Origin: Candidatus Campbellbacteria bacterium
GTDB taxonomy: Bacteria > Patescibacteriota > Minisyncoccia > Phycocordibacterales > EsbW-18
DNA: 64,000 nt
Assembly: GCA_024653945.1 (NCBI GenBank)
Contig: JANLIT010000003.1
Location: 30,097 to 94,096, forward strand
Direction: 5' to 3'
Below are positions 6,431 to 62,690 of the stretch, in pieces. The notes under the pieces are model-generated. The model worked only from the letters and a program-made list of their open reading frames with translations. It was not told where the DNA came from and did no database searches. Every line of letters begins with the position of its first letter. Within the stretch, counting starts at the first letter, position 1. A program made the position numbers and the translations under genes.

Positions 6431-7408
6431 ATGAAAAGCACCGGTAAAAAAATCGCACTTTCAGGCGTGAAGCCAACAGGCCGACCACACATCGGAAATT
6501 ATTTTGGTGCAATGAAGCAGTTTGTTGAACTGCAGGAAACACACGAGAATTATATTTTTGTTGCCAACTACCACGCGCTCATTGGTGTACAAAACGCGAA
6601 GACGCTTGCACAAGACACACGCGACGTGATTATTGATTATTTGGCAATCGGCATTGACCCAGATACAACAACACTCTTTTTGCAGTCAGATATTCCAGAA
6701 GTGACAGAACTTGCATGGATTTTTAACACACTCGTCACCGTTCCATACTTGCAACGAGCTCACGCATATAAAGATGCCATTGCAAAAGGAAAGGAGGCAA
6801 CCGTGGGACTTTTTGATTATCCCGTGTTGATGGCGGCGGATATTTTGCTTCCGAATGCGGATGTGGTGCCCGTTGGTGCAGACCAGAAACAGCATGTGGA
6901 GTATGCTCGAGACATTGCACAAAAATTTAATCTTGCGTTTGGCGATACCTTCACGGTTCCTGAACCTCTCATTTTGAAAGATGTTGCGATTATTCTCGGC
7001 ACCGACGGACAAAAAATGAGCAAGAGTTACAACAATACCATTCCATTGTTTGCGACACGTGATGAAATTACGAAGGCGGTGATGAGTATTCCAACCGATT
7101 CTGCTGGAGTTGCTGACCCCAAAGATCCTGAAAAAGATTTTGTATTCCAATTCCACAAACTATTCGCAGGAGATAAACTCGCAGAGATTCGCGCTGGCTA
7201 CGAAAAAGGTGGGCTCGCGTATTCAGAATCAAAGAAAATGCTCATTGAAGAAATAGATGCGTTTTGTGCGCCTCTCCGAGAAAAACGCGCGAAGATTGCC
7301 GGCGATACAAAAATGGTTGACCGTGTCATTGCCGAGGGTAGAGACAAAATCCGTCCACACGCACAGGAATTGATGAAAAAAGTTCGCGAGAAAGTGGGGA
7401 TTGTATGA
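6431..7408 (+). CDS. trpS: Tryptophanyl-tRNA synthetase
   Basis: 325 aa. N-terminal GVKPTGRPHIGNYFG (HIGH-type), KMSKS present, and size typical of TrpRS. Confidence 0.9.
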   Translation: MKSTGKKIALSGVKPTGRPHIGNYFGAMKQFVELQETHENYIFVANYHALIGVQNAKTLAQDTRDVIIDYLAIGIDPDTTTLFLQSDIPEVTELAWIFNTLVTVPYLQRAHAYKDAIAKGKEATVGLFDYPVLMAADILLPNADVVPVGADQKQHVEYARDIAQKFNLAFGDTFTVPEPLILKDVAIILGTDGQKMSKSYNNTIPLFATRDEITKAVMSIPTDSAGVADPKDPEKDFVFQFHKLFAGDKLAEIRAGYEKGGLAYSESKKMLIEEIDAFCAPLREKRAKIAGDTKMVDRVIAEGRDKIRPHAQELMKKVREKVGIV

Positions 7409-7503
7409 AGTGTGCAAAAAAAAGATATTGACATACCGTATTCTTCATTTATAATACAGATAGAAAGGTTCAACCGACACACAATCAATTGAGGAGACTG
7501 GCG

Positions 7504-7728
7504 ATGAACAGCATTCCGAAGGACAAGAGTTACCCAAGTGATTCCGTGCAGTGCGGTGGTTGTCGTGGACGTGGGTGCAAGGAGTGCGAACAGCGGGGAT
7601 GGTTCACGCCAGCATCTCATCCAAGGGGGCAACGTTGTTGGCTGGGAACGTGCGAGAAGCCCCTCCCCCCAAACCACATTGCAGTCTACTGTTCCAACCA
7701 GTGCGCCCAAGACGACGCCACGGACTGA
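7504..7728 (+). CDS. Small Cys-rich (zinc-ribbon-like) protein, GC-rich cassette
   Basis: 74 aa. CGGCRGRGCKECEQRG ... CWLGTC ... CSNQC. SD gaggag 7 nt upstream. Terminator follows. Confidence 0.35.
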   Translation: MNSIPKDKSYPSDSVQCGGCRGRGCKECEQRGWFTPASHPRGQRCWLGTCEKPLPPNHIAVYCSNQCAQDDATD

Positions 7729-7756
7729 TGTTCTCGTCGCTCGCTTTCCGCCCTAG

Positions 7757-7790
7757 GAGCCGCTGCTCTTCGGGCGGCTCTTTTGTTTTT
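7757..7790 (+). terminator. Rho-independent terminator
   Basis: gagccgctgctcttcgggcggctc followed by ttttgttttt. Confidence 0.7.
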
Positions 7791-7865
7791 GGAGTTGCAT
7801 TTTTGGTTACCATTTCGTACACTCATATGTGGACGCGCAATCCAGCGCGACGAAAGGAGCACGGT

Positions 7866-7982
7866 ATGAGTAAGCCCCGGCAGGGTCGCAACCGTCACTG
7901 CAAGCGCTTGAGCCGCATGTTCAACCTCAAGAACGGCTGGCCCATGCATCGGCGGGTGATCCTCCGGCTTCGGGCCGCGTAG
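7866..7982 (+). CDS. Very small basic Arg-rich peptide (38 aa), GC-rich cassette
   Basis: SD aaaggagcacggtATG. MSKPRQGRNRHCKRLSRMFNLKNGWPMHRRVILRLRAA. Own terminator downstream. Confidence 0.3.
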   Translation: MSKPRQGRNRHCKRLSRMFNLKNGWPMHRRVILRLRAA

Positions 7983-8011
7983 ACCCGAGCATCCTTCTCT
8001 CAACCACCACC

Positions 8012-8041
8012 GGGCGCCCCACAAGGGCGCCCTTTATCTTT
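8012..8041 (+). terminator. Rho-independent terminator
   Basis: gggcgccccacaagggcgccc followed by tttatcttt. Confidence 0.6.
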
Positions 8042-8103
8042 AACATACGGCTTGTGCACATTTGGGAAGAGGGGAAAAAACCTATATACTATGTATATGA
8101 ATC

Positions 8104-8219
8104 ACGTTAGAAATAACACAGTAGGCGTGACGCATTATCAGACCGCGGGAGCAAACATTGGTAATGGGGTGTGTTTTATTAAATAGCATTGGAAACGAAC
8201 GTTTCTGATTTCTAACGTG
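8104..8219 (+). promoter_or_regulatory. aspS leader with long-range 12-bp perfect inverted repeat (CACGTTAGAAAT ... ATTTCTAACGTG) whose 3' arm abuts the start codon, plus internal palindrome GAAACGaaCGTTTC
   Basis: Direct reading: 8104-8115 is the reverse complement of 8208-8219, and the ATG is at 8220. Confidence 0.4.
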
Positions 8220-23662: not shown

Positions 23663-23960
23663 GTAAAAGAAAATAAATGAAAAAGGAGAAGGGTTCCCGT
23701 AGGTTACCACTCCTCCCCACCTGGCGCCGTTAGGGCGCAAAGGTGTTGTTGGCGGCGCACCGTGACAGTTCCCTAGTGGAACCGCCCGGTGCCGCCGCGC
23801 CGGCGATCAGGCCGAAGCGATGCTCAGATAGTCGTGCGAATAAAGCGACGAGTACATCAGGCGCATGTCTTCTCCTCGTTCTTGCTTCGGGTCCATTCCC
23901 TCAGCAAGTCCAAGAGTATTATACTCCCCCATCTGGAGTTGTCAAGCCCTCCAAAACCCT

Positions 23961-24013
23961 TTGTTTTTCAAAAGAAAACCGCCTAATGAAAGCTCGGCTT
24001 TCTTAGGCGGTGT
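23961..24013. terminator. Hairpin terminator (U-tract on minus side) downstream of GC-rich gene 24037..24525; near-identical in sequence to the terminator at 27216..27268
   Basis: aaaACCGCCTAAtgaaagctcggctttcTTAGGCGGTg, with minus-strand run ttttcttttg. Confidence 0.65.
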
Positions 24014-24036
24014 TGAGGCGCACCGCCTCCTTCTGT

Positions 24037-24525
24037 CTACCCTGTCGGAGTTACGGTAAGTTTCGCCGCGACCTCCGTGGGTTTGTTGATGAGGTGGCTC
24101 ATGTTGGAGCCGGAGTAGAAGGGGCGGTGTTGATTCCTCCGCATCCACCTGGAGAGCTCGTAACACCGTTCCACCATGTCCTTGATGACCATCTCCCGAG
24201 AAGGGATGGTTGGCGGTACCCAGTTCTCCATCTTCTCCTTCCACCAGCGAACAAATGCGTTGTAGTTCGAATGCGCCAGGACGGCTTCAACATGCCGTTG
24301 CTGGTAAACCTTGACGATTTCCACGGCGGCCTGGCGAAAGATGGTGACGATCTCGTCGACACTCAGTATCTTCCACTCCTGCCCACCCCAGATGGGAACG
24401 TTGTGAAAGAAGCCGTTGAAGCGATCGATGACAGGGCGCAGCTGAACCAGTCCGTCGAAATCCACTTCTTCCACTTGGACGACGACGGGTCCCTGCTCGA
24501 TTTTTTTGTATCCGACATGCAACAT
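24037..24525 (-). CDS. Hypothetical 162-aa protein, GC-rich cassette
   Basis: SD gggaggtgtgccATG. Terminator downstream on the same strand. The opposite-strand ORF 24010..24585 has a composition typical of antisense. Confidence 0.45.
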   Translation of the reverse strand: MLHVGYKKIEQGPVVVQVEEVDFDGLVQLRPVIDRFNGFFHNVPIWGGQEWKILSVDEIVTIFRQAAVEIVKVYQQRHVEAVLAHSNYNAFVRWWKEKMENWVPPTIPSREMVIKDMVERCYELSRWMRRNQHRPFYSGSNMSHLINKPTEVAAKLTVTPTG

Positions 24526-24551
24526 GGCACACCTCCCTTGCTGGTAAGTAA

Positions 24552-24594
24552 TGCGTTGTTTCAGAAAATTTCTTCAACGCCCTGAAACAACGCA
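24552..24594. promoter_or_regulatory. 13-bp perfect inverted repeat TGCGTTGTTTCAG-n17-CTGAAACAACGCA upstream of cassette gene 24037..24525
   Basis: Direct reading. No U-tract, so it is not a terminator; possibly an operator or a 5' leader structure. Confidence 0.35.
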
Positions 24595-24755
24595 TCACGA
24601 GCATCTGAGGCACGTTATACTACATATATATCATAGTTGTCAATCCCCATTCTACCGCCTACTTTCTACCAGCTACAAGCTACTTCTTTGTCCCCAGAAT
24701 ACGCACTCGTACTCCCCTTTTTTGTTCGAATGGGTCATTTCTCTCGTGTGCTACT

Positions 24756-27215: not shown

Positions 27216-27268
27216 AAACAAGAAAACCGCCTGACGAAGCGCGGCTTTCCGTGCTTTGTCAGGCGGCG
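27216..27268. terminator. Bidirectional hairpin terminator, sequence-related to 23961..24013
   Basis: aaaACCGCCTGACgaagcgcggctttccgtgctttGTCAGGCGGcg, with minus-side run tttcttgtttc. Confidence 0.6.
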
Positions 27269-27278
27269 TGTCGAGAGA

Positions 27279-27707
27279 TTACAGCTCCTTCTTTCCAGCT
27301 TGAGCGAACGGGTAGAGTCCCCTCTCGAGACTCGGGAACTCTTTCACCATACCCTCCACAAAAACATCGAGATTCTCATAGACACTCAGGACCTCATCGA
27401 CATAAAGAGGGTCCATGAGAGTTTCATCGGTTGAAAACACCTGACAACCGAGAGAGCAAGGGGCCTGCGAGCGAACTCCCACAACCATCACGTACTCCCC
27501 ACGCCGATTTCTGTAAGCACCGAGCGACCAGTGGCAGTTGGAGTTTGTGAATTCCTTCCGCACACCGTCCGGTTTCCAGTTGGTCCGATCACACTCCAAG
27601 TGCACCAGTCCGATGATCATCGAAATCAGTTGCAGAATCCTTTTTCGCATCAGGTCGATGTTGGCAGATCCGTGAAGCAACAGTTCGGCGATTCCTATGT
27701 CGGACAT
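27279..27707 (-). CDS. Hypothetical 142-aa protein, GC-rich cassette
   Basis: SD aggaggacagggATG. GC-rich. Terminator downstream. Confidence 0.45.
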   Translation of the reverse strand: MSDIGIAELLLHGSANIDLMRKRILQLISMIIGLVHLECDRTNWKPDGVRKEFTNSNCHWSLGAYRNRRGEYVMVVGVRSQAPCSLGCQVFSTDETLMDPLYVDEVLSVYENLDVFVEGMVKEFPSLERGLYPFAQAGKKEL

Positions 27708-27861
27708 CCCTGTCCTCCTGTCTCCAGTTTCCCTCTCGGGATTGCTCTCTCGAGCGTTTGCCTATGTACGCAATGTACACAGTTCTAGGGAAATTATATA
27801 TCTATATTACACTTGTGTCAAGTTACCCCAAATAGCCCTAAAAATCTGCTAAAATGGACAT

Positions 27862-28472: not shown

Positions 28473-28946
28473 CTAAGAATAGATCAGAAGGAAAAGAAAA
28501 AAGATAATTGGAACGGAAAGCCAGCGCAGAAAAACCTTCCTCTTCTCCTCACGTGTCAAATCTTTATTCCAAGTGCGTATAGTCTTCACTAACAGAGCAA
28601 TAGAAAACCCCGCACTACAGAAAGCTCCGATATCAGGAACTATATAAGAAGAGAAACCGGCTAGCATCCCAAGAAGAGTCGTGGTTGCGAAAGCGGCCAG
28701 TGTTATCAGTATCATTCCTATCCTAAAAAGAAACCCCTTTACAAGAATCTGACGACCAAACATACTCCACAGCCCAACAATTACGAGAGCTGCACCAACA
28801 AACGACATGAGGTTAGATTCAAAGAGATACTTGTTGTTGGCACGAAGGATGAGAAGGGTGGTACCGGCTATGATAATAATCAGCGACACCACTATGCGTG
28901 GTGTAGAAAAAAATAACTTTTTATTCTCCTTATCCAACTTTTCCAT
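28473..28946 (-). CDS. Hypothetical polytopic membrane protein
   Basis: 157 aa with about 4 hydrophobic helices. Confidence 0.4.
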   Translation of the reverse strand: MEKLDKENKKLFFSTPRIVVSLIIIIAGTTLLILRANNKYLFESNLMSFVGAALVIVGLWSMFGRQILVKGFLFRIGMILITLAAFATTTLLGMLAGFSSYIVPDIGAFCSAGFSIALLVKTIRTWNKDLTREEKRKVFLRWLSVPIIFFLFLLIYS

Positions 28947-29310: not shown

Positions 29311-29495
29311 AGATGTGTAGTATACATGCTCTGGGGGCGATTACAAGTATGTAAAACAACATTTTGTAATCCAAACGGTTTAATATATATAAAATTTTTT
29401 AACCATATCAAACCATTGACTTTTTTTGTTTTTGCTGTACCATCGCACACAGACACAGATGTTCCTATCAACCCGTCTTCAAAAAGGAGAACGTC

Positions 29496-29993
29496 ATGAC
29501 GGTAGTCGGCGTGATTGTGTACTGTTTCATCGGGTTGGTCCTCGCAGTCCCCTACTGTCTTTTGGCAGGATGGAGCCCTGAGAGTCTCCCCGCCGTAGCA
29601 ACCTTCGGGCCAGCATTTCTGCTCATCTGGCTCCTGTTCGGAGTAACCTCAGGAGTCGTGGTGCCAAACAGCAATCGAAAGTGGTTGCCTGTTCGATTTC
29701 ATTGGCGTGGTTCCCGAAGTAAGTCAACCGCCCCCAGAAGCGTGTTCTGGATATGGACCGCCTACGGCCTCCTTCCCATCTTAGTGCACTGGAGTTCGAT
29801 GCTTCTCGGAAAAATGGGCTACAGCGAGATTGCTTTACTGCTCAATGCCAATCGCTACATGAGCATCGTCTACGTTTTTCTTGGTGGTCTCGTGGTAGCT
29901 TGTCTGCTCATAGTTGCCTTCGGGGTTTGGGAGGGGTTGAAAAACGCCCGGACGTGGGTGCTACACCATGTGCCGTGGCGAGTTAGTCACTAG
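29496..29993 (+). CDS. Hypothetical membrane protein, GC-rich cassette
   Basis: SD aaaaggagaacgtcATG. 165 aa with 4 hydrophobic helices. GC-rich. Confidence 0.45.
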   Translation: MTVVGVIVYCFIGLVLAVPYCLLAGWSPESLPAVATFGPAFLLIWLLFGVTSGVVVPNSNRKWLPVRFHWRGSRSKSTAPRSVFWIWTAYGLLPILVHWSSMLLGKMGYSEIALLLNANRYMSIVYVFLGGLVVACLLIVAFGVWEGLKNARTWVLHHVPWRVSH

Positions 29994-30079
29994 GAACCGG
30001 TTCTCGTCGAGTCCTTCACGAAAGGAGTTTTACACAAACTCTATCGTGTGGGACTCTTTTCGTATCCCCGTGTTCGTTG

Positions 30080-30095
30080 CAAGTATCGATACTTG
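30080..30095. promoter_or_regulatory. 16-bp perfect palindrome CAAGTATCGATACTTG between convergent cassette genes
   Basis: Direct reading. Confidence 0.3.
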
Positions 30096-30136
30096 TGCCA
30101 GATGAGCAATGCCACTATTTTATCTCAAGTCAGACC

Positions 30137-30171
30137 AACAAAAAAACATCCCCAGAACACTGTTCTGGGGG
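30137..30171 (-). terminator. Rho-independent terminator for 30195..30602
   Basis: CCCCAGAACA/TGTTCTGGGG stem, with a minus-strand run of seven T then G. Confidence 0.6.
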
Positions 30172-30194
30172 TACTACCGGGGTTCGTCTTGTGT

Positions 30195-30602
30195 CTATTT
30201 ACAAACGGACAACAGCCTGAATGCGCTGGGATTCACCGTAACGGGAGGAGGGGGTGGTTCCTCCGCGGCGTTGATGAAGACCCTGTTCTCATCGGCGAAG
30301 AACCGTAGAAGTCTCTTCCAGTCCGATGGGGGTCCAGTCACAAGGAAGAGCTTCCAGAGAACATTCCTGTTGCCCACGTCGCTGAAGACGATGTCCCCGA
30401 GATACCGGTGCACGCCATCTTCGCACTCGTACCAGAAGTATGCTCCGTTCAACCCCTCCGGCTTCACCGAGCCGACAAGCAGGTTCTTGCCGATGCGCAT
30501 CAGCGAGGCCATCTTAATGGCGGTCTCACTCACATCAACACGAACGTGTTCGCCACTGACCAGTCGGACGGTCTTCACTTGGGCTTTCCTACCTTTTTTC
30601 AT
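30195..30602 (-). CDS. Hypothetical 135-aa protein, GC-rich cassette
   Basis: SD aggaaggaacagaccATG. PPPPP tract. Terminator downstream. Confidence 0.4.
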   Translation of the reverse strand: MKKGRKAQVKTVRLVSGEHVRVDVSETAIKMASLMRIGKNLLVGSVKPEGLNGAYFWYECEDGVHRYLGDIVFSDVGNRNVLWKLFLVTGPPSDWKRLLRFFADENRVFINAAEEPPPPPVTVNPSAFRLLSVCK

Positions 30603-30690
30603 GGTCTGTTCCTTCCTGAAAAGGCTGACGGGACTCGTCTGCCTGTTTGTTTTCTATTTTTGATTATGCACTTTTCTATTTAAAAGTCAA

Positions 30691-31331: not shown

Positions 31332-31432
31332 ACGATTTCACAAAATCGCGTCGCGCAATTGTTGATTCTGCAGAATCATGTCACGTACTGTCCATTAAAA
31401 CGTGACCTAAAGCGCGACGTATATTGTGATGG
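31332..31432 (-). repeat. Start-codon-abutting repeat element, copy B (long form incl. GATTCTGCAGAATC palindrome)
   Basis: The reverse complement reads cgtcgcgctttaggtcacgttttaatggacagtacgtgacatgattctgcagaatcaacaattgcgcgacgcgattttgtgaaatcgtATG. It aligns with copy A at 58-104 and 147-169. Confidence 0.75.
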
Positions 31433-32347: not shown

Positions 32348-32896
32348 ATGCAATTTCTTGAACCATTCAATATCGCTCTCTTTTATATTCTGAACTCACT
32401 TGTTGGGAAGTCAGCGTTTCTCGACAACGTGATTATATTTTTTGCCGAGCCGTTTACGTATGTGCTCATTGCAATAGTCTGCATTGTCATCTACCGAGAT
32501 ATTAATCGTGAGCGTGTGCAGGAATTTTTATGGAATGTTGCGGGTCTTATCATAAGTGTGGTTGGTGCATATGTTGTAACTGGTTTCTTTCGCCTTTTTT
32601 ATGACCACCCGCGACCTCTCTGGGCTCTTGGTGCACCACATTTGCTTATTGAAACAACTTCCTCGTTTCCATCGGCACACACTATTTTTCTTTTCAGTTT
32701 GGCAACCTCAATGTACTTTTTCGGAAATAAAAAGTTGGCGTACTTTTTGTACGCCTCTGGTCTTGTGGTAGGTATTGCTCGTGTTATTGCGGGCGTTCAC
32801 TTCCCTTTGGATATTCTCGGAGGAATTGTGTTCGGTGTTGCGATTGGATACATCGTGCGCTTCGCACTTCACCGATACGCCAAGGTAACAATGTGA
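32348..32896 (+). CDS. PAP2 superfamily phosphatase (undecaprenyl-diphosphatase-like)
   Basis: DHPRP, FPSAHT, RVIAGVHFPLD are the three PAP2 signature motifs. Confidence 0.8.
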   Translation: MQFLEPFNIALFYILNSLVGKSAFLDNVIIFFAEPFTYVLIAIVCIVIYRDINRERVQEFLWNVAGLIISVVGAYVVTGFFRLFYDHPRPLWALGAPHLLIETTSSFPSAHTIFLFSLATSMYFFGNKKLAYFLYASGLVVGIARVIAGVHFPLDILGGIVFGVAIGYIVRFALHRYAKVTM

Positions 32897-33852
32897 TCAA
32901 GAAAATGTGCGAGTGGAACCCCCACCGCATTGAGAGATTTTGGGAAAAGTGATTCTGATGTTAATCCCGGAAGCGTATTTATTTCAAGCACATACACATC
33001 TCCGCGCGGAGTAACCATGCAATCCGTTCGCGAATAGTGTGACGCACCAACTGCTTGGTGTGTGGCACGCGCCGCATCTTGAATCGCTTGTGTTTCTTCT
33101 CGTGAAAATCGTCCTGGGCATCGCTCTTCTGCTCCACCTCCATACTTTGCATCAGAATCAAAAAATGCCGATTCTTTTGGTGGAATGATTTCTATCGGCA
33201 AGAGTGTGTACACTTTTTCTCCCTTAAAATCTTCAATAACACCACACGTTGCTTCTTTGCCATTCACAAATGCTTCAATAAGCACTTCGGGAGAAAACTT
33301 TGAGGCGCGTTCTATTGCCTCACCTAGGTCATCAAATTTTCGTACAATTGAAACACCGAATGATGAACCGTCAGCGACAGGTTTTACCACACTTGGGTTT
33401 GGAAACGTTTTAAATATCTCAAGTACGTCGGAAGGTCCTTGTGTTCGTGTGTCAAAAATAATATGCGGGGGTGTTTTGATGCCATTTTGAGCAAGTACCT
33501 CTTTAGTGCGCCCTTTGTGCATCGCAAGCGCTGATGCAAACGAACGTGAGCCAGTGTATGGAGTTGCCGTGCTTTCAAGTATTCGCTGAACTTCACCGTC
33601 TTCTCCATATGCCCCATGAAGTGCATTGAACACAACATCAACACGCTTTGTCGCGTGCTCGGGTGCTAGTGGGAATCCATCTGCGTGCCATTGTCCCGCT
33701 TTATCAATAAAAATATCCACGGGCTCATATTTTTCGCGTTCGAGTGTATCCAAAACCGTCTTCCCTGTTTTCAGAGAAATATCGTATTCATTACTCGGAC
33801 CTCCACGAAGTACACCAACTCGAATTTTTGTCATGTATAAAGTATACCGCAC
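32869..33852 (-). CDS. ddl: D-alanine--D-alanine ligase
   Basis: IRVGVLRGGPSNEYDISLKTG ... HGAYGEDGEVQRILE ... ATP-grasp C-terminus. 327 aa (or from MTKI at 33834). Confidence 0.85.
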   Translation of the reverse strand: MRYTLYMTKIRVGVLRGGPSNEYDISLKTGKTVLDTLEREKYEPVDIFIDKAGQWHADGFPLAPEHATKRVDVVFNALHGAYGEDGEVQRILESTATPYTGSRSFASALAMHKGRTKEVLAQNGIKTPPHIIFDTRTQGPSDVLEIFKTFPNPSVVKPVADGSSFGVSIVRKFDDLGEAIERASKFSPEVLIEAFVNGKEATCGVIEDFKGEKVYTLLPIEIIPPKESAFFDSDAKYGGGAEERCPGRFSREETQAIQDAARATHQAVGASHYSRTDCMVTPRGDVYVLEINTLPGLTSESLFPKSLNAVGVPLAHFLDHIVTLAYR

Positions 33853-33865
33853 ACATGAACATTTT

Positions 33866-33898
33866 TGAAAAAGAAAAGCGGCGCCTTATCGTAGCGCC
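33866..33898 (-). terminator. Minus-strand hairpin terminator ending an ORF-poor GC-rich transcript unit (just upstream of ddl)
   Basis: GGCGCCttatcgtaGCGCC, with minus run cttttctttttc. Confidence 0.45.
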
Positions 33899-34152
33899 GT
33901 TTTCCGAGTACTGAGACGTCCTCGCGAGCTTTCCGTGGGGCACGGTTCAGCTGGGTTGGATGTTCTCGGAACAGTACGCGACCTTCAGATTCTTTTGAGT
34001 GGAGAATCGGAAAAGGTCGAAGAAAAGAACCGGAGATCGATAAGGCTCATGTCTTTAGCCCCATCAGACGTTCGCGCCCACGGCCCGGTCGATCAGCTGG
34101 CCAGTAGATTGCAGGGCGTTTGAACCTGCCTGTAGTATACCACAAAAAATAA

Positions 34153-34185
34153 GACAAAAAGAAAACCCCGGATTACGCTCCGGGG
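34153..34185 (-). terminator. Minus-strand hairpin terminator inside the ORF-poor GC-rich segment
   Basis: CCCCGGAttacgcTCCGGGG, with minus run ttttctttttgtc. Confidence 0.5.
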
Positions 34186-34514
34186 GTCGAGTGGTAACTT
34201 TTTTTCGCATGTTCGTGTGAACGACATGCGGTGCTGGGCTCGAGGCGTTCCCTACCTGAAATCGGTGCAATCTCGCCCAACCATCTACTCACACTCTGTG
34301 CGCCATTTTTTCTTTCCCTAAGAGGAAAATCGGGTTGGAACCCAAAAGCGCTTTGAGACGCCCCTTTCAAGGTATTTTGAGCGTCTCGGACGGGCGCAAC
34401 GAAAGCGGCTTCTCTGCTTGATACACAGGAAGGTCCGGAGGGGTCATCCAAAAAGTGACCCACCAACCCGCCTGAACGTGCGCCCGTGGACCTTATAGTA
34501 CTTATCCTAGTATT

Positions 34515-35738
34515 TTAATGCAACCTTAATGTTTTTTTCCTAAACGTAGAGATTGCAAAACGATGTGCCTCATTGTTGGCGAGAAGAATTTCCTTTCCAT
34601 ACTCTGTGATGTGTTCCTTATTTCCAAGCAATTTTTCAGGTCGGTGTCGTTCGTTTTTTGTAACCGCAACAACAGGAATTTGATAGCCAAAGGTTTTCAA
34701 CACTTTTTCTGCGGTATTCTTTTGAGCAATACCACCATCCACAACAATAAGTTTCGGCAACTGCCATTCGTTGTGATTGAGTCGTCGTTCTAAAATTTCA
34801 GCAAGTCCTGCGGTGTCCCCTTTTTGATGTGTTTTAATAGTGAATGTTCGATATTCTTTTTTGTTGGATTCCCCATTTTCCACAACCGTCATCACTCCCA
34901 CTCGAGCCGTTCCAGAAATATGCGCCACATCATATGCTTCAATACGGAACGAGTTTGTAGCTTGTAGCTTGTAGCTTGTAGCTTTTAAAAGAGACACGTC
35001 CTGAATATGTTGCAGAGCGTACAGACGACGTTTCATTTCAGACGCCATTTCAAATTGTTTTGTCCTAGCATACGCCTTCATGTCACGCGTAATGGCACGG
35101 ATAAGTTGTTTCTTTTTCCCCTCAAAAAAGAGCACAATATGCCGAATTGTTTTTTTGTACTCACGTGGAGTGATATTCTTCGATTGGGGTGAAAGTCCAA
35201 TCTCTTCATACAAACGAGACGCTCGTCTTCTGTCCGTCGCAAGAGGTGCATCTGTCTTTCCGCGATACGGAAATATTTTACGTATAATTTTGAGCGCTTC
35301 CTGTAACTGTGTCCCATATGGAAACGGTCCAAATGTTTTTTGATATTTGATATTTAATATTTGATTTTGCAACAGTTCTCGGTGGCGTATCGTAAAGACA
35401 CGAGGAAATTGCTCAAAGGTGATTACGACGTAATTAAAGCTGGTGTCACTTTTTTCTTTTGCGTTGTACTTCGGCTGGTGCTTTTTAATAAGCACCGCTT
35501 CAAGGATAAGCGCCTCCAATACCGAGTCGGTTTTCTCCACACGAACACCTGTTGCCTCCTCAAGCATTTTTACAATGCGCGGTCCACGTGTCTCTGTAAT
35601 ATCAGACAAGAAATAACTTTTCACCCGAGAACGGAGCGATGTTGCCTTTCCAATGTACAAAATCTTCTTTCCTTTTAAGAAGAAGTACACGCCCGGCATG
35701 TCGGGAAGTGTGTGTATTTTAGAATCAATGAATTTCAT
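34515..35738 (-). CDS. uvrC: Excinuclease ABC subunit C, compact form (GIY-YIG + UvrBC + RNase H-like endonuclease domain, no C-terminal HhH pair)
   Basis: PGVYFFLKGKKILYIGKATSLRSRVKSYF (GIY-YIG), FEMASEMKRRLYALQHI (UvrBC), RIEAYDVAHISG... endonuclease domain. 407 aa. Confidence 0.75.
   Translation of the reverse strand: MKFIDSKIHTLPDMPGVYFFLKGKKILYIGKATSLRSRVKSYFLSDITETRGPRIVKMLEEATGVRVEKTDSVLEALILEAVLIKKHQPKYNAKEKSDTSFNYVVITFEQFPRVFTIRHRELLQNQILNIKYQKTFGPFPYGTQLQEALKIIRKIFPYRGKTDAPLATDRRRASRLYEEIGLSPQSKNITPREYKKTIRHIVLFFEGKKKQLIRAITRDMKAYARTKQFEMASEMKRRLYALQHIQDVSLLKATSYKLQATNSFRIEAYDVAHISGTARVGVMTVVENGESNKKEYRTFTIKTHQKGDTAGLAEILERRLNHNEWQLPKLIVVDGGIAQKNTAEKVLKTFGYQIPVVAVTKNERHRPEKLLGNKEHITEYGKEILLANNEAHRFAISTFRKKTLRLH
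34955..34982. repeat. Tandem microsatellite (GTAGCTTG)x~3.5 inside uvrC coding sequence (encodes ATSYKLQAT)
   Basis: Direct reading: tttgtagcttgtagcttgtagcttgtagc. Confidence 0.7.
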
Positions 35739-39399: not shown

Positions 39400-39495
39400 T
39401 TGATTTCACAAAATCACGTCGCGCAAGTGATTCTGCGGAATTATGTCGCGTACCGTCCACTAAGACGCGACCTTGAGGCGCGACGTATTCTTCAT
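39400..39495 (-). repeat. Start-codon-abutting repeat element, copy C (long form)
   Basis: The reverse complement reads tacgtcgcgcctcaaggtcgcgtcttagtggacggtacgcgacataattccgcagaatcacttgcgcgacgtgattttgtgaaatcaaATG. The second hairpin is TGATTT/AAATCA, a compensatory change relative to CGATTT/AAATCG. Confidence 0.75.
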
Positions 39496-39645
39496 TACCT
39501 GCTTTGTCCCACACCATGGACAGTGCCATTCTTTTTTGGTAGTTGGTGCATCACCAACTGACCACCACTTATTGCACACTCCACATCGAAAATGTGAAAG
39601 ACGCTCTACCGAACGAAGTCCTTGTTGTTGTGTTTTTTTCTTCAT
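39460..39645 (-). CDS. Small zinc-ribbon protein (CxxC...CxxC), 3' end overlapped by repeat copy C
   Basis: MKKKTQQQGLRSVERLSHFRCGVCNKWWSVGDAPTTKKEWHCPWCGTKQV... Confidence 0.35.
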   Translation of the reverse strand: MKKKTQQQGLRSVERLSHFRCGVCNKWWSVGDAPTTKKEWHCPWCGTKQVMKNTSRLKVAS

Positions 39646-39694
39646 ATATGCAGTAATGCCCCCTGTTTTTTGTAGGGGGGGGTACATGGGCAAG

Positions 39695-39760
39695 TATAGC
39701 AGAAAAGGGATAAGTAGGAAGTAGTAGGTAGAATGTAGTAAGTAGTAGGTAGAAAGCAAA
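39695..39760. repeat. GTAG-rich degenerate tandem repeat tract (AGTAGTAGGTAGAA x2 plus variants)
   Basis: Direct reading: aagtaggaagtagtaggtagaatgtagtaagtagtaggtagaaagc. Confidence 0.5.
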
Positions 39761-39764
39761 ATGT

Positions 39765-39810
39765 TGGGAAAAGAAAAAGGCGCAGACTAGGATTTCTCCC
39801 AGAGTGCGCC
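39765..39810 (-). terminator. Rho-independent terminator for 39833..40360
   Basis: GGCGCAgactaggatttctcccagagTGCGCC, with minus run tttttcttttccc. Confidence 0.55.
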
Positions 39811-39832
39811 TCACTAACACCAACCGGCGACC

Positions 39833-40360
39833 TTACTTCGTGGCAGCCTTGCGCCCCCGCTTGGAGGAGTCGATGACAGTCTTGCCCCGCACGACGCTCA
39901 CTCGCGTGAGCCGTTTCTGGGTCTCGCCGTCCTTCAGGATTGCCTTCGCCTCGGCTGAGGTGAAGAGCAAGAGGCTCGTGCTGTCGGGAGGGATGATCTT
40001 GACGGCAGGAGCGTCCCCCACGAAGCTGCCGGTGGCCACCTTGACCTCGGTCGACTTCGACTTCTCGGGCTGCTTCTCGTTGTCCTCGATAGCAACAACC
40101 TGAAGGATGGCGGCGATCATGGCCTTGTCACCCTTGATGAGGTTGTAGTCGACGAGGTTCTTGTCCTCGCTCTTCGGCTTCGCGTTGAAGTTGCGGAGAA
40201 CCGTCTCCGCATCATGGAAGCGTGCTTTGGCTTCCGTGAAGTTCGCCGTGGGGAACTTCACCTCGTACTCGGCGAGTCGGCCCTCCAGCACGTTCAGGCG
40301 AGAGACGAGGATGTCGCGGACCGAAATCTGAATCGACTGCTTCTGAAGCTTGGTGTTCAT
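39833..40360 (-). CDS. Hypothetical 175-aa protein, GC-rich cassette
   Basis: SD gggagaaagaaccATG. GC-rich. Own terminator. Confidence 0.45.
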   Translation of the reverse strand: MNTKLQKQSIQISVRDILVSRLNVLEGRLAEYEVKFPTANFTEAKARFHDAETVLRNFNAKPKSEDKNLVDYNLIKGDKAMIAAILQVVAIEDNEKQPEKSKSTEVKVATGSFVGDAPAVKIIPPDSTSLLLFTSAEAKAILKDGETQKRLTRVSVVRGKTVIDSSKRGRKAATK

Positions 40361-40654
40361 GGTTCTTTCTCCCTTGCGACCTTGGTCGCGGTTGGTTGAT
40401 TTGTTCTACTGCAGAATTTTACGCACCGTTCATAAAATTCTTATAAAGTGCCCAAAATTCCGAAGTAGAACCTCTTTTAAAGATCGTACGTGTACAGTAT
40501 ATCATATACATTGTATTTGTCAACCCCATTAGAGATTTCCCTTTAAACAAGCTAAAAAACCTAATAATATAAAGGTACTTTTGACACTGGCAAATGTAAC
40601 AAATCTATACAAACTCTAACGGGGTCAGGCACCCCTCCTTATACCCTTTTAACA

Positions 40655-40906
40655 TTGAGAAATAAGGCCAAAAGGACTACGTTTAAGAGAGCATTACCAA
40701 CTAACTACATACATATGTCACACAAAAGCTTTATCTCCATTACTACGTTTATTTTTGCGGTCATTGGTATTCTGCACCTTATGCGTGTTCTCTACGCGTG
40801 GAACGCAGTTATTGCGGGCTGGATGGTTCCTATGTGGCTTTCCTGGCTTGCGGTGCTCGCCTGCGCCCTCCTTGTTTGGAGCGGGCTTAAGTTGAGACGT
40901 CACTAA
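40655..40906 (+). CDS. Hypothetical small membrane protein
   Basis: Two hydrophobic helices. Start may instead be MSHKSF at about 40715. Confidence 0.35.
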   Translation: MRNKAKRTTFKRALPTNYIHMSHKSFISITTFIFAVIGILHLMRVLYAWNAVIAGWMVPMWLSWLAVLACALLVWSGLKLRRH

Positions 40907-40917
40907 TAAACAAACTT

Positions 40918-40959
40918 TTTTCCATTATAAAACGCGTACGCGTTTTATAATGGAAAAAT
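40918..40959. promoter_or_regulatory. 42-bp perfect palindrome (20-bp arms TTTTTCCATTATAAAACGCG-ta-CGCGTTTTATAATGGAAAAA); candidate bidirectional terminator or protein-binding site
   Basis: Direct reading. Flanked by T/A runs on both sides. Confidence 0.6.
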
Positions 40960-41064
40960 CAGAATCTCCTTTGCGTTTGACGTAAGAGAAATAGTTTGGT
41001 ATATTCCACACAGTTTTGTACTGTGATTGCCTACTTGTGGGTGCCACATCAGAGGAGGTTTGCG

Positions 41065-41418
41065 ATGGCAAAGAAGCGACGTTTTGCAACGCAGGACCAG
41101 CGTACGAGGGGGGAGATGTTGAATGACCTCTCCCGACAAGGGGAAGAGCTTCGAGATCTTACCAAGGAGAGGGACGAACTTCTCGGCGAGAGACACGTCC
41201 TTCGCCAGGCGAGAGCTGACCTCTTCTTGAACTTTGGGACCGCCAAGCTGGATGTCGCCAGTCTCTCGGAAGAGAAGGCGCACCTTCTGGCGAGAGTCGA
41301 GAACCTCCTAGGGAACGCCGAGGAGATGAGGAAGAGGCACGACGGAGAAAACGAGCGCCATCAGGCCTTCGTCGACGGACTTTCTCTGGCACTCAGAGTC
41401 GTCACCGGCAAGGTGTGA
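41065..41418 (+). CDS. Hypothetical 117-aa charged coiled-coil protein, GC-rich cassette
   Basis: SD agaggaggtttgcgATG. GC-rich. Terminator downstream. Confidence 0.4.
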   Translation: MAKKRRFATQDQRTRGEMLNDLSRQGEELRDLTKERDELLGERHVLRQARADLFLNFGTAKLDVASLSEEKAHLLARVENLLGNAEEMRKRHDGENERHQAFVDGLSLALRVVTGKV

Positions 41419-41454
41419 GTCCTCGTTCGGATGAACAACCTCTCGGGAGTAAGA

Positions 41455-41502
41455 GCGGGACGACCATTCAATTGGTCCTCCCGCTTTGTTTTTTATTTTT
41501 TC
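41455..41502. terminator. Rho-independent terminator (serves cassette gene; T-run overlaps uvrB stop)
   Basis: GCGGGACGACCattcaattGGTCCTCCCGC, then tttgttttttattttttc. Confidence 0.65.
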
Positions 41503-43589: not shown

Positions 43590-43617
43590 TCTACCATTAT
43601 TTTGATTCTATAGAATT

Positions 43618-43654
43618 AAAAACAAAACCCGCTTCGGTCAAACCAAAAGCGGGG
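43618..43654 (-). terminator. Rho-independent terminator for 43699..44148
   Basis: CCCGCTTcggtcaaaccaaAAGCGGG, with minus run ttttgttttt. Confidence 0.55.
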
Positions 43655-43659
43655 TCTTT

Positions 43660-43690
43660 GCATCGCGTCGGAATTGAACCGACGCGATGC
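43660..43690. promoter_or_regulatory. 12-bp-arm perfect palindrome GCATCGCGTCGG-aattgaa-CCGACGCGATGC (shares CGCGTCG/CGACGCG core with the repeat family)
   Basis: Direct reading. Confidence 0.4.
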
Positions 43691-43698
43691 GCTGCAGT

Positions 43699-44148
43699 CT
43701 AGAGCATGGCGAGCCGAAGTCGTCGCTCATGCCAGTAGATGCTCGTGAGCCACAGGCCGAGGAGAGCTGTGCCGATGATTGCTGGCCAGAGGAGCCCGAG
43801 ATTCAGAGTCAGAAAAATCGCACCAGCCACCAGTAAATCTGCCACGAGAACGAAACGGAAACGAATCCGCGGGTTGTCGGCGGCGACGATGGCTATGTGG
43901 AGGACGACGAGAAAGGCCATAACGATGGCAAAACTAACAATGGCAAAACTGATGACCCTTGAACCTTCGGGGGGCGAACTGAAAAGATACGCCACTGTCA
44001 CAAAGGCAATCATCCCGATCGCCCACCAAAGCACGAACTTCAGTTGGCTGTTCAGCATCTTTTTTCTCACTTTCTCCGCAGTGCGGATAAACTGCATATT
44101 TAATTTACGATTGGACACAGTCCAATCAAGATCATTCCGCACGCACAA
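43699..44148 (-). CDS. Hypothetical membrane protein, GC-rich cassette
   Basis: 3-4 hydrophobic helices. Internal 15-bp tandem (caatggcaaaact x2) encodes ISFAIVSFAIV. True start is uncertain (MQF or MLNSQ). Confidence 0.4.
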   Translation of the reverse strand: MCVRNDLDWTVSNRKLNMQFIRTAEKVRKKMLNSQLKFVLWWAIGMIAFVTVAYLFSSPPEGSRVISFAIVSFAIVMAFLVVLHIAIVAADNPRIRFRFVLVADLLVAGAIFLTLNLGLLWPAIIGTALLGLWLTSIYWHERRLRLAML

Positions 44149-44169
44149 TACTCTTTAAATTGATTTTTG

Positions 44170-51109: not shown

Positions 51110-51175
51110 ACGATTTCACAAAATCGCACCGCGCAATTGAAACATGACACAAGAGCGCGGTGGTATTTGTATTAC
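51110..51175 (-). repeat. Start-codon-abutting repeat element, copy D (short form; hairpin 1 is CACCGCGC/GCGCGGTG, a compensatory variant)
   Basis: The reverse complement reads ccaccgcgctcttgtgtcatgtttcaattgcgcggtgcgattttgtgaaatcgtATG. Confidence 0.75.
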
Positions 51176-57711: not shown

Positions 57712-57770
57712 GCGATTTCACAAAATCGCGTCGCGCAAGTGTCAATTAAAGCGCGACGAATACTTGTGTG
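57712..57770 (-). repeat. Start-codon-abutting repeat element, copy E (short form)
   Basis: The reverse complement reads tcgtcgcgctttaattgacacttgcgcgacgcgattttgtgaaatcgcATG. Confidence 0.75.
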
Positions 57771-62629: not shown

Positions 62630-62690
62630 ACGATTTCACAAAATCGTGTCGCGCAACTGTCCGCTAAAGCGCGACGTTAATTTTATTTTT
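62630..62690 (-). repeat. Start-codon-abutting repeat element, copy F (short form)
   Basis: The reverse complement reads acgtcgcgctttagcggacagttgcgcgacacgattttgtgaaatcgtATG. Confidence 0.75.

Follow-up and report, generated by a model that had tools for sequence, protein, structure and literature searches.

The DNA between uvrC and ddl in a metagenome-assembled genome (MAG) of Candidatus Campbellbacteria (class Paceibacteria, Candidate Phyla Radiation, CPR) is best described, at a probability of roughly 0.5, as an accessory non-coding insert of two minus-strand units that occupies a variable spot between the two genes, and not as a housekeeping RNA gene. According to this reading, unit A (about 34514 to 34153) would most likely be transcribed as a 3' extension of the uvrC mRNA that ends at an intrinsic terminator, T1, and unit B (about 34127 to 33866) would give rise to an sRNA-like transcript of ~260 nt that starts from the extended -10 promoter TGGTATACT and ends at a second terminator, T2. 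Lying just upstream of the leaderless ddl promoter, T2 would insulate this promoter, and T1 and T2 together would uncouple transcription of ddl from that of uvrC. The products would be lineage-restricted transcripts of the sRNA type, a moderately structured one of ~340 nt from unit A and one of ~260 nt from unit B. The reading builds on an absent coding signal, on the two terminators, on transcription signals that are kept in one relative and on the setting in a variable insertion hotspot; from these we infer transcription of the two units, their start sites and any function in trans.

Two terminator-bounded units between uvrC and ddl

The gap covers positions 33853-34514 (662 bp) of the window, which is the whole 64,000-nt stretch of DNA that was analysed. 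It is bordered by the start of ddl (ATG at 33834; longest ORF from 33852) and by the stop codon of uvrC (34515-34517), and both flanking genes are encoded on the minus strand. The ddl gene (32869-33834, minus strand) codes for a D-alanine--D-alanine ligase of 321 aa with the conserved start MTKIRVGV... at ATG 33834, and the protein is 100% identical to an NCBI protein bearing that name. The uvrC ORF (34515-35738, minus strand) codes for 407 aa with a GIY-YIG and an RNase H-like endonuclease domain and without a C-terminal HhH domain; its product has a 100% identical counterpart at NCBI, a Campbellbacteria MAG protein in which PF01541 and PF08459 are present. Canonical UvrC has ~600 aa and a C-terminal helix-hairpin-helix domain. 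Throughout the clade, that is in the window (34515-35738) and in all related loci, UvrC has a length of ~400 aa and stops soon after an EAHRFA motif, the endonuclease domain being present and the C-terminal helix-hairpin-helix domain missing.

The GC content of the gap is 0.518, compared with 0.449 for the window, 0.452 for ddl and 0.412 for uvrC, and it is the second highest among the 16 gaps of more than 200 bp in the window. As no credible ORF was found in it either, the preliminary description of a GC-rich, ORF-poor segment between ddl and uvrC was correct. Further GC-rich islands (0.52-0.60 versus 0.45) lie at 7409-8216, 23663-24755, 27216-27861, 29311-30690, 39400-41492 and 43590-44169. 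They hold orphan ORFs without a Pfam family, some of which resemble real proteins, including membrane proteins. The codon-position GC of the orphan ORFs at 7551-7982 and 851-1207 is non-coding-like.

A terminator scan over 33500-34900 detected five terminator-like sites, compared with 1.7 ± 1.4 in shuffles, and recovered both minus-strand intrinsic terminators that had been proposed to delimit two units. T1 (34153-34185, minus strand) reads CCCCGGA-GCGTAA-TCCGGGG followed by UUUUCUUUUUGUC and has a hairpin of -14.9 kcal/mol; it consists of the stem-loop 34185-34166 (7 pairs, 6 of them G-C) plus TTTTCTTTTT, with the U-tract extending to 34153. T2 (33866-33899, minus strand) reads CGGCGC-TACGATAA-GGCGCCG followed by CUUUUCUUUUU and has a hairpin of -17.2 kcal/mol (z = -3.6); here the stem-loop 33899-33879, again with 7 pairs of which 6 are G-C, is joined by CTTTTCTTTT, and the U-tract reaches 33866. 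Both are thus of the Rho-independent type, with a G+C-rich hairpin and, directly after it, a U-tract on the transcribed strand. The two co-directional terminators split the gap into units of ~340 nt (A) and ~260 nt (B).

The body of unit A (34186-34494, minus strand) is GC-rich, comprises ~300 nt and contains a weak terminator-like hairpin at 34345-34330 that was detected in the terminator scan. It is preceded by a weak promoter-like site at 34495-34523 on the minus strand, which was read from the sequence and consists of TTGCAT (34523-34518), a 17-nt spacer and TACTAT (34500-34495). This site agrees with the consensus at 7 of 12 positions and was not reported by the consensus scan; the 8-mer AGTACTAT found there also occurs in the related locus L001, at chance level. 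No terminator was found between the uvrC stop codon and T1. Since its own promoter is weak and no terminator separates it from uvrC, unit A is best read as a putative 3' extension of uvrC up to T1. For unit B, an extended -10 promoter element, TGG-TATACT, was read from the sequence at 34134-34142 (minus strand), and a start near 34127 is predicted, at the beginning of the ~230-nt body of this unit (33900-34127, minus strand). This promoter has a degenerate -35 region in the window.

A single related locus with the same layout

Among the relatives, only L001 carries a homologous two-unit insert. Its UvrC and Ddl are 72% and 81% identical to those of the window, and its uvrC-ddl gap of 757 bp shows the order uvrC, ~300 nt, terminator, a TTGACA-16-TATACT-AC promoter (TATACTAC), ~220 nt, terminator and ddl promoter. 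T1 is kept in L001 at 6764-6800 (83% over 30 nt, E = 0.002 in a pairwise search), with CCGGRGCG..AATCCGGGG.TTTT.CTTTT as the conserved pattern, and a terminator is also present at the position equivalent to T2. The string GTATACTAC is common to the window and L001, and in L001 as well as in L084 it sits after a TTGACA-16 promoter. Also conserved between the window and L001 is the block TTTTyCAAAAA..GTGTGCGGTATAC, of which GTGTGCGGTATAC is identical in L001. The promoter TTGACAAATAAA, 8 nt, GGTGTA[T/C]A[C/A]T is found 3' of uvrC in L084 and L094 too, and the L084 contig ends in this promoter region, at ...GGTGTATACTAC. These transcription signals have survived a divergence that saturates neutral DNA, and some 700 bp are retained, which argues that the layout is used.

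The bodies of the units behave differently from the signals. Smith-Waterman scores were compared with those of dinucleotide shuffles, and neither unit A and L001 U1 (z = -1.9) nor unit B and L001 U2 (z = 0.8) showed similarity beyond chance; for unit B and L001 U1 a z of 3.0 was obtained, with 2 of 200 shuffles equally good. Pairwise alignment of the unit bodies of window and L001, aimed at a consensus fold, yielded meaningless alignments. Conservation in relatives, which had been proposed as a check, therefore holds for the two-unit layout and the transcription signals in L001, and fails for the bodies and for most relatives, from which the segment is absent.

The uvrC-ddl junction as an insertion hotspot

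In many Paceibacteria uvrC and ddl lie next to each other, usually with a gap of 12-200 bp. Genomes free of the insert rank with the closest available relatives of the window (UvrA ~92%, UvrC 73-77% identical): the gap is 12 bp in L081, a locus from a complete 811-kb genome, 78 bp in L085 and 79 bp in L086, and the insert is likewise missing at this site in L087, L089 and L092. Further relatives carry cargo of another kind: in L083 an orphan ORF of 140 aa that has a promoter and a terminator of its own, in L094 a 101-aa ORF and a short hairpin unit, and in distant relatives a pair of histidine kinase and response regulator. In the more distant L069 a promoter- and terminator-bounded unit of ~470 nt (7420-7885) with a long-range helix of ~45 bp (z = -8.1) and no Rfam match occupies the site; either a mobile inverted-repeat element or a large structured RNA is conceivable. 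Since the cargo at the junction differs from relative to relative, the junction is an insertion hotspot.

Three genomes (L001 7097-7215, L085 5217-5293, L086 1801-1877) carry a small palindromic MITE-like element within the ddl -10 box, TATACT. It sits exactly in this box, with TATAC followed by CCAGCACTTAA at one border and TTAAGTGCTGG followed by GTATAC at the other, and thereby duplicates the -10 box. Two ddl alleles were also noted, a 321-aa type in the window and in L001 (81% identical) and a 297-aa type in L081, L083 and L085 that is only 44-47% identical to the ddl of the window, though UvrA identity is equal (~92%). Two alleles that differ this strongly at equal UvrA identity suggest that gene replacement has taken place at the uvrC-ddl junction.

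When units A and B were searched by blastn and nhmmer, no match was found in 80 related genome loci, and in 25 further loci only the short terminator pattern was matched. No copy of the insert was detected in phage and plasmid collections (blastn, distant mode), and a self-similarity search of the segment within the window revealed no other copy. In JGI metagenomes the junction pattern at the ddl promoter had no match; the 11 matches to the T1 pattern were rejected as chance terminators in unrelated GC-rich contigs. At the borders of the insert the best terminal inverted repeats (15/20) were at chance level, and no integrase, attC-like site or target duplication was found.

These data also bear on a second explanation, which we regard as possible at odds well short of even: the segment may be a decayed accessory cassette, in which one or two small orphan genes with promoter and terminator were inserted and their frames have since been lost. 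The remaining DNA would then be non-functional, and the outer signals would survive only through uvrC termination and ddl expression. The intact small orphan ORFs with promoter and terminator at this site in L083 (140 aa) and L094 (101 aa), the two-component pair of the distant relatives and the palindromic MITE-like inserts mark the place as a hotspot; several other GC-rich orphan islands without Pfam match lie in the window, and the -35 element of unit B appears displaced there. The cassette stays a serious rival because the bodies of window and L001 are unconserved and cannot be aligned, because equally close relatives dispense with the insert and because other cargo is found at the site. 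It is weakened by the searches with Pfam, NCBIfam, tblastn, tblastx and phmmer, in which no remnant of a protein family or of the relatives' cargo genes came to light, although a gene may have eroded completely, and by the absence of residual codon periodicity. The internal T1/-10 module, moreover, is kept with L001 where neutral DNA is saturated, and a dead insert of 660 bp would be expected to be deleted from such compact genomes. Of the initial alternative of structured ncRNA or decayed cassette, the non-coding nature and the two terminator-bounded units are supported, and the choice between the two has been narrowed only.

Fold stability of the units

Compared with shuffles, unit A folds with a z of -3.2 to -3.8, whichever strand is considered. 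Across 128 background windows of 340 nt taken from this genome, z averaged -0.7, and 7% of them had a z of -3 or lower, with unit A in about the top 5%; its fold is therefore notable, not exceptional. The fold of unit B (z = -1.3 to -1.7) is not distinguishable from shuffles, so that the richness in local helices ascribed to the whole segment applies to unit A and does not extend to unit B. Complementarity between A and B, with inverted repeats of 15 and 16 nt, was at chance level. In L001 the fold z was -0.7 for U1 and -4.4 for U2, which does not correspond to the -3.8 and -1.3 of units A and B in the window. Given the unalignable bodies and the non-corresponding z values, there is no evidence for conserved structure or covariation.

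Strongly folding stretches were observed elsewhere in the window. On the minus strand of 40200-40540 the fold z is -5.6. At 23665-23945, also on the minus strand, lies a GC-rich unit of ~245 nt (23912-23665, z = -5.0) that ends in a hairpin and U-run; the promoter before it, at 23945-23918, agrees perfectly with the consensus (TTGACA-16-TATAAT, 12/12), and inside the unit a 19-codon ORF comes after a Shine-Dalgarno-like GAGGAG. The unit had no match in Rfam at E ≤ 10 and is a stronger ncRNA or leader-peptide candidate than the uvrC-ddl gap. Units A and B, the units of L001 and perhaps 23912-23665 might belong to fast-evolving, CPR-specific structured RNAs bounded by promoter and terminator, whose fold or function outlives alignable sequence. 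We consider this improbable; if true, such units would represent new ncRNA classes of Patescibacteria that are missed by current covariance libraries.

For the reading as a non-coding insert with two transcribed units speak the absent coding signal, two strong intrinsic terminators on the strand of the genes, the retention of T1, the -10 box and the ddl promoter block in L001 despite neutral saturation, the persistence of a non-coding stretch of ~700 bp in two lineages whose clade has very compact gene spacing, the high GC content of the gap and the fold z of unit A. Against it stand the dissimilar bodies and non-corresponding fold stabilities in L001, the missing insert in the equally close L081, L085, L086, L089 and L092, a unit A z that is matched by about 5-7% of the genome windows and is the same on both strands, the degenerate -35 region of unit B and the weak promoter of unit A.

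Coding capacity of the gap

The longest ORF of the gap lies on the minus strand in unit A and has 97 aa with a TTG start (113 codons from stop to stop). Its GC content at the three codon positions is flat (GC1/2/3 of 0.56/0.55/0.48), whereas genuine genes of the window, GC-rich orphans included, have a GC2 of 0.34-0.45. The ORF is in the frame of uvrC, downstream of the TAA stop codon, and runs into the hairpin of T1. On the minus strand of unit B no ORF of more than 36 aa was found. All candidate ORFs were without match in Pfam and NCBIfam, tblastx of the window insert versus the L001 insert showed no conserved peptide, tblastn with the cargo proteins of the relatives gave no match in the gap, and a word-index search with the plus-strand ORF of unit B as query was negative. 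With phmmer the unit A ORF had neither a self-hit nor a genuine match among 1.84 billion predicted proteins; the missing self-hit means that no gene caller had called this ORF. The lone match (E = 1.5e-4) was to a translated CRISPR-like repeat array and was judged spurious; no repeat array was found in the gap segment. An in-frame read-through extension of UvrC was rejected as well, as the frame differs in L001, no HhH or other Pfam domain is present and the codon-position GC is flat. The segment is non-coding, in agreement with the preliminary description, in which no convincing ORF had been seen and the best candidates had TTG starts.

It is accordingly unlikely that the segment encodes unannotated small, fast-evolving proteins, be it through the 97-aa ORF of unit A (or a 113-codon read-through of UvrC) or through the 120-aa and 71-aa ORFs of L001. 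Such ORFs do cover nearly all of unit A and of both L001 units, the one in unit A shares the frame of uvrC, and orphan ORFs occupy the site in neighbouring relatives. Their codon-position GC is flat in L001 as it is in unit A, however, and they enter or cross terminator hairpins and begin with TTG or GTG without ribosome-binding context. No peptide is kept between window and L001, where the frame relative to uvrC differs, the transcribed strand of unit B lacks any ORF of more than 36 aa, and the 97-aa ORF is unrecorded by gene callers in the protein collections.

The ddl promoter and probable leaderless transcripts

The promoter scan placed the ddl promoter at 33841-33869 on the minus strand (TTCAAA, 17-nt spacer, TATACT), so that the -10 box ends 6 nt before ATG 33834. 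A TATACT or GATACT is found 6 nt before the ddl ATG in L081, L083, L085, L086, L094 and L001, which are all of the relatives examined, and this fixed distance implies a leaderless ddl mRNA. Most genes of the window have no Shine-Dalgarno sequence, and a TATACT/TATAAT-like box lies 6-8 nt before the ATG not only at ddl but also at 28946, 29310, 21315 and 27862, which suggests that leaderless mRNAs are frequent in this genome window.

Another element close to start codons is GCGCGnnnCGATTTTGTGAAATC, of which five near-identical copies were observed on the minus strand (31334-31356, 39402-39424, 51112-51134, 57714-57736 and 62632-62654), all of which end 2-3 nt ahead of a gene's ATG; uvrA is one of these genes. 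By chance 0.01 copies are expected, and a palindrome, CGATTT..AAATCG, lies inside the motif. The motif may serve these genes as a common promoter or operator, perhaps within a damage-response regulon.

That unit B is a long 5' leader of ddl, a riboswitch- or T-box-like attenuator controlled by T2, is very unlikely. T2 lies on the same strand ~30 nt upstream of the ddl ATG and follows ~230 nt of RNA, and with most window genes lacking a Shine-Dalgarno sequence a ddl leader would need none. The -10 box that ddl has of its own 6 nt before the ATG in relatives, though, implies a start downstream of T2, and most relatives express ddl without such a leader; unit B shows no structural excess, its body is not conserved in L001, and no riboswitch or T-box of Rfam was matched even at E ≤ 10.

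Searches for known RNA families

Rfam 15 was searched with the whole window, and at the gathering score only two tRNAs were recovered; ARAGORN likewise found two tRNAs and no tmRNA. In the region 33780-34600, searched on both strands with permissive filters at E ≤ 10, only chance matches to miRNA- or terminator-like models appeared (E ≥ 1.3). Nothing relevant was found in the L001 insert, in ten related loci or in the gap of L069. The cmscan search that the preliminary description had called for was thus carried out and identified no relevant family, at the gathering score or at E ≤ 10. The strings GGAAGGTCCGGAGGGG and GAAAACCCCGGATTA, which had been said to recall loosely the conserved regions CR-I and CR-V of RNase P RNA, are indeed in the segment, on the plus strand. 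The likeness itself was not upheld by Rfam: the strings stand in reversed order, and GAAAACCCCGGATTA is one arm of T1. Links to tmRNA or SRP RNA, which could not be drawn from the sequence at the outset, found no support in Rfam at E ≤ 10 or in ARAGORN.

A divergent housekeeping RNA (RNase P RNA, tmRNA, SRP RNA or 6S RNA) in the gap is effectively refuted: the ~340 nt of unit A fit the length of RNase P RNA and the plus strand holds GGAAGGTCCGG (cf. GGAAAGUCCGG of CR-I) and AACCCCGGATTA (cf. CR-V), but neither strand matches the RNase P, tmRNA, SRP or 6S models at E ≤ 10, ARAGORN is negative, the order of the two motifs is wrong, neither lies on the strand of the terminators, the CR-V-like one forms an arm of T1, the putative P4 pairing, read against the established RNase P structure, lacks the bulged-U geometry, and the segment is missing at this site in close relatives, including L081 from a complete genome, and is not conserved in L001.

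Comparison with known systems

RNase P RNA (Rfam RF00010 / RF00011) resembles the segment in the size of unit A and in two short CR-I/CR-V-like plus-strand strings. It differs in that the gap has no covariance-model match at E ≤ 10 and is unconserved in relatives, and its motifs are reversed in order, lie opposite the terminator strand and include one arm of a terminator. This negative outcome is useful, as the segment is not a hidden RNase P RNA, tmRNA or SRP RNA.

The two units have more in common with orphan and 3'UTR-derived sRNAs. They are intergenic and non-coding, have a sigma-70-type -10 box, end in a Rho-independent terminator with a U-tract and show a very narrow phylogenetic distribution; unit A, like 3'UTR-derived sRNAs, lies directly 3' of a gene with no terminator in between. 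Unlike most sRNAs, they are long (~340 and ~260 nt), and the candidates have no demonstrable conserved seed or structure. To our knowledge, CPR bacteria do not encode sRNA networks of the Hfq or ProQ type. The locus is a modest candidate small-RNA locus and a lead of low to moderate value. Only a few candidate regulatory RNAs have been described for bacteria of the Candidate Phyla Radiation, whose genomes are tiny and about whose regulation next to nothing is known, and the units, if expressed, would join them.

The gap also resembles the 'unknown' regions of GC-IGR surveys (PMC6429828, PMC8632094, PMC11109978), being long and, within a moderately AT-rich genome, clearly richer in GC than the other intergenic regions. 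In this approach high intergenic GC enriches for structured ncRNAs, and a motif is accepted only with conservation in homologues and covariation (PMC8632094). The uvrC-ddl segment differs from the accepted motifs, as its single homologous locus, L001, gives neither conserved body sequence nor covariation.

With regard to insertion hotspots and accessory cassettes, the insert differs at its borders, where neither an integrase or attC-like site nor terminal inverted repeats or a target duplication were found. The likeness lies in the conserved flanks, between which different genomes hold nothing, orphan ORFs, palindromes, a two-component pair or the insert described here, and the locus illustrates how the uvrC-ddl junction, between two core genes, acts as a hotspot for insertions in these genomes.
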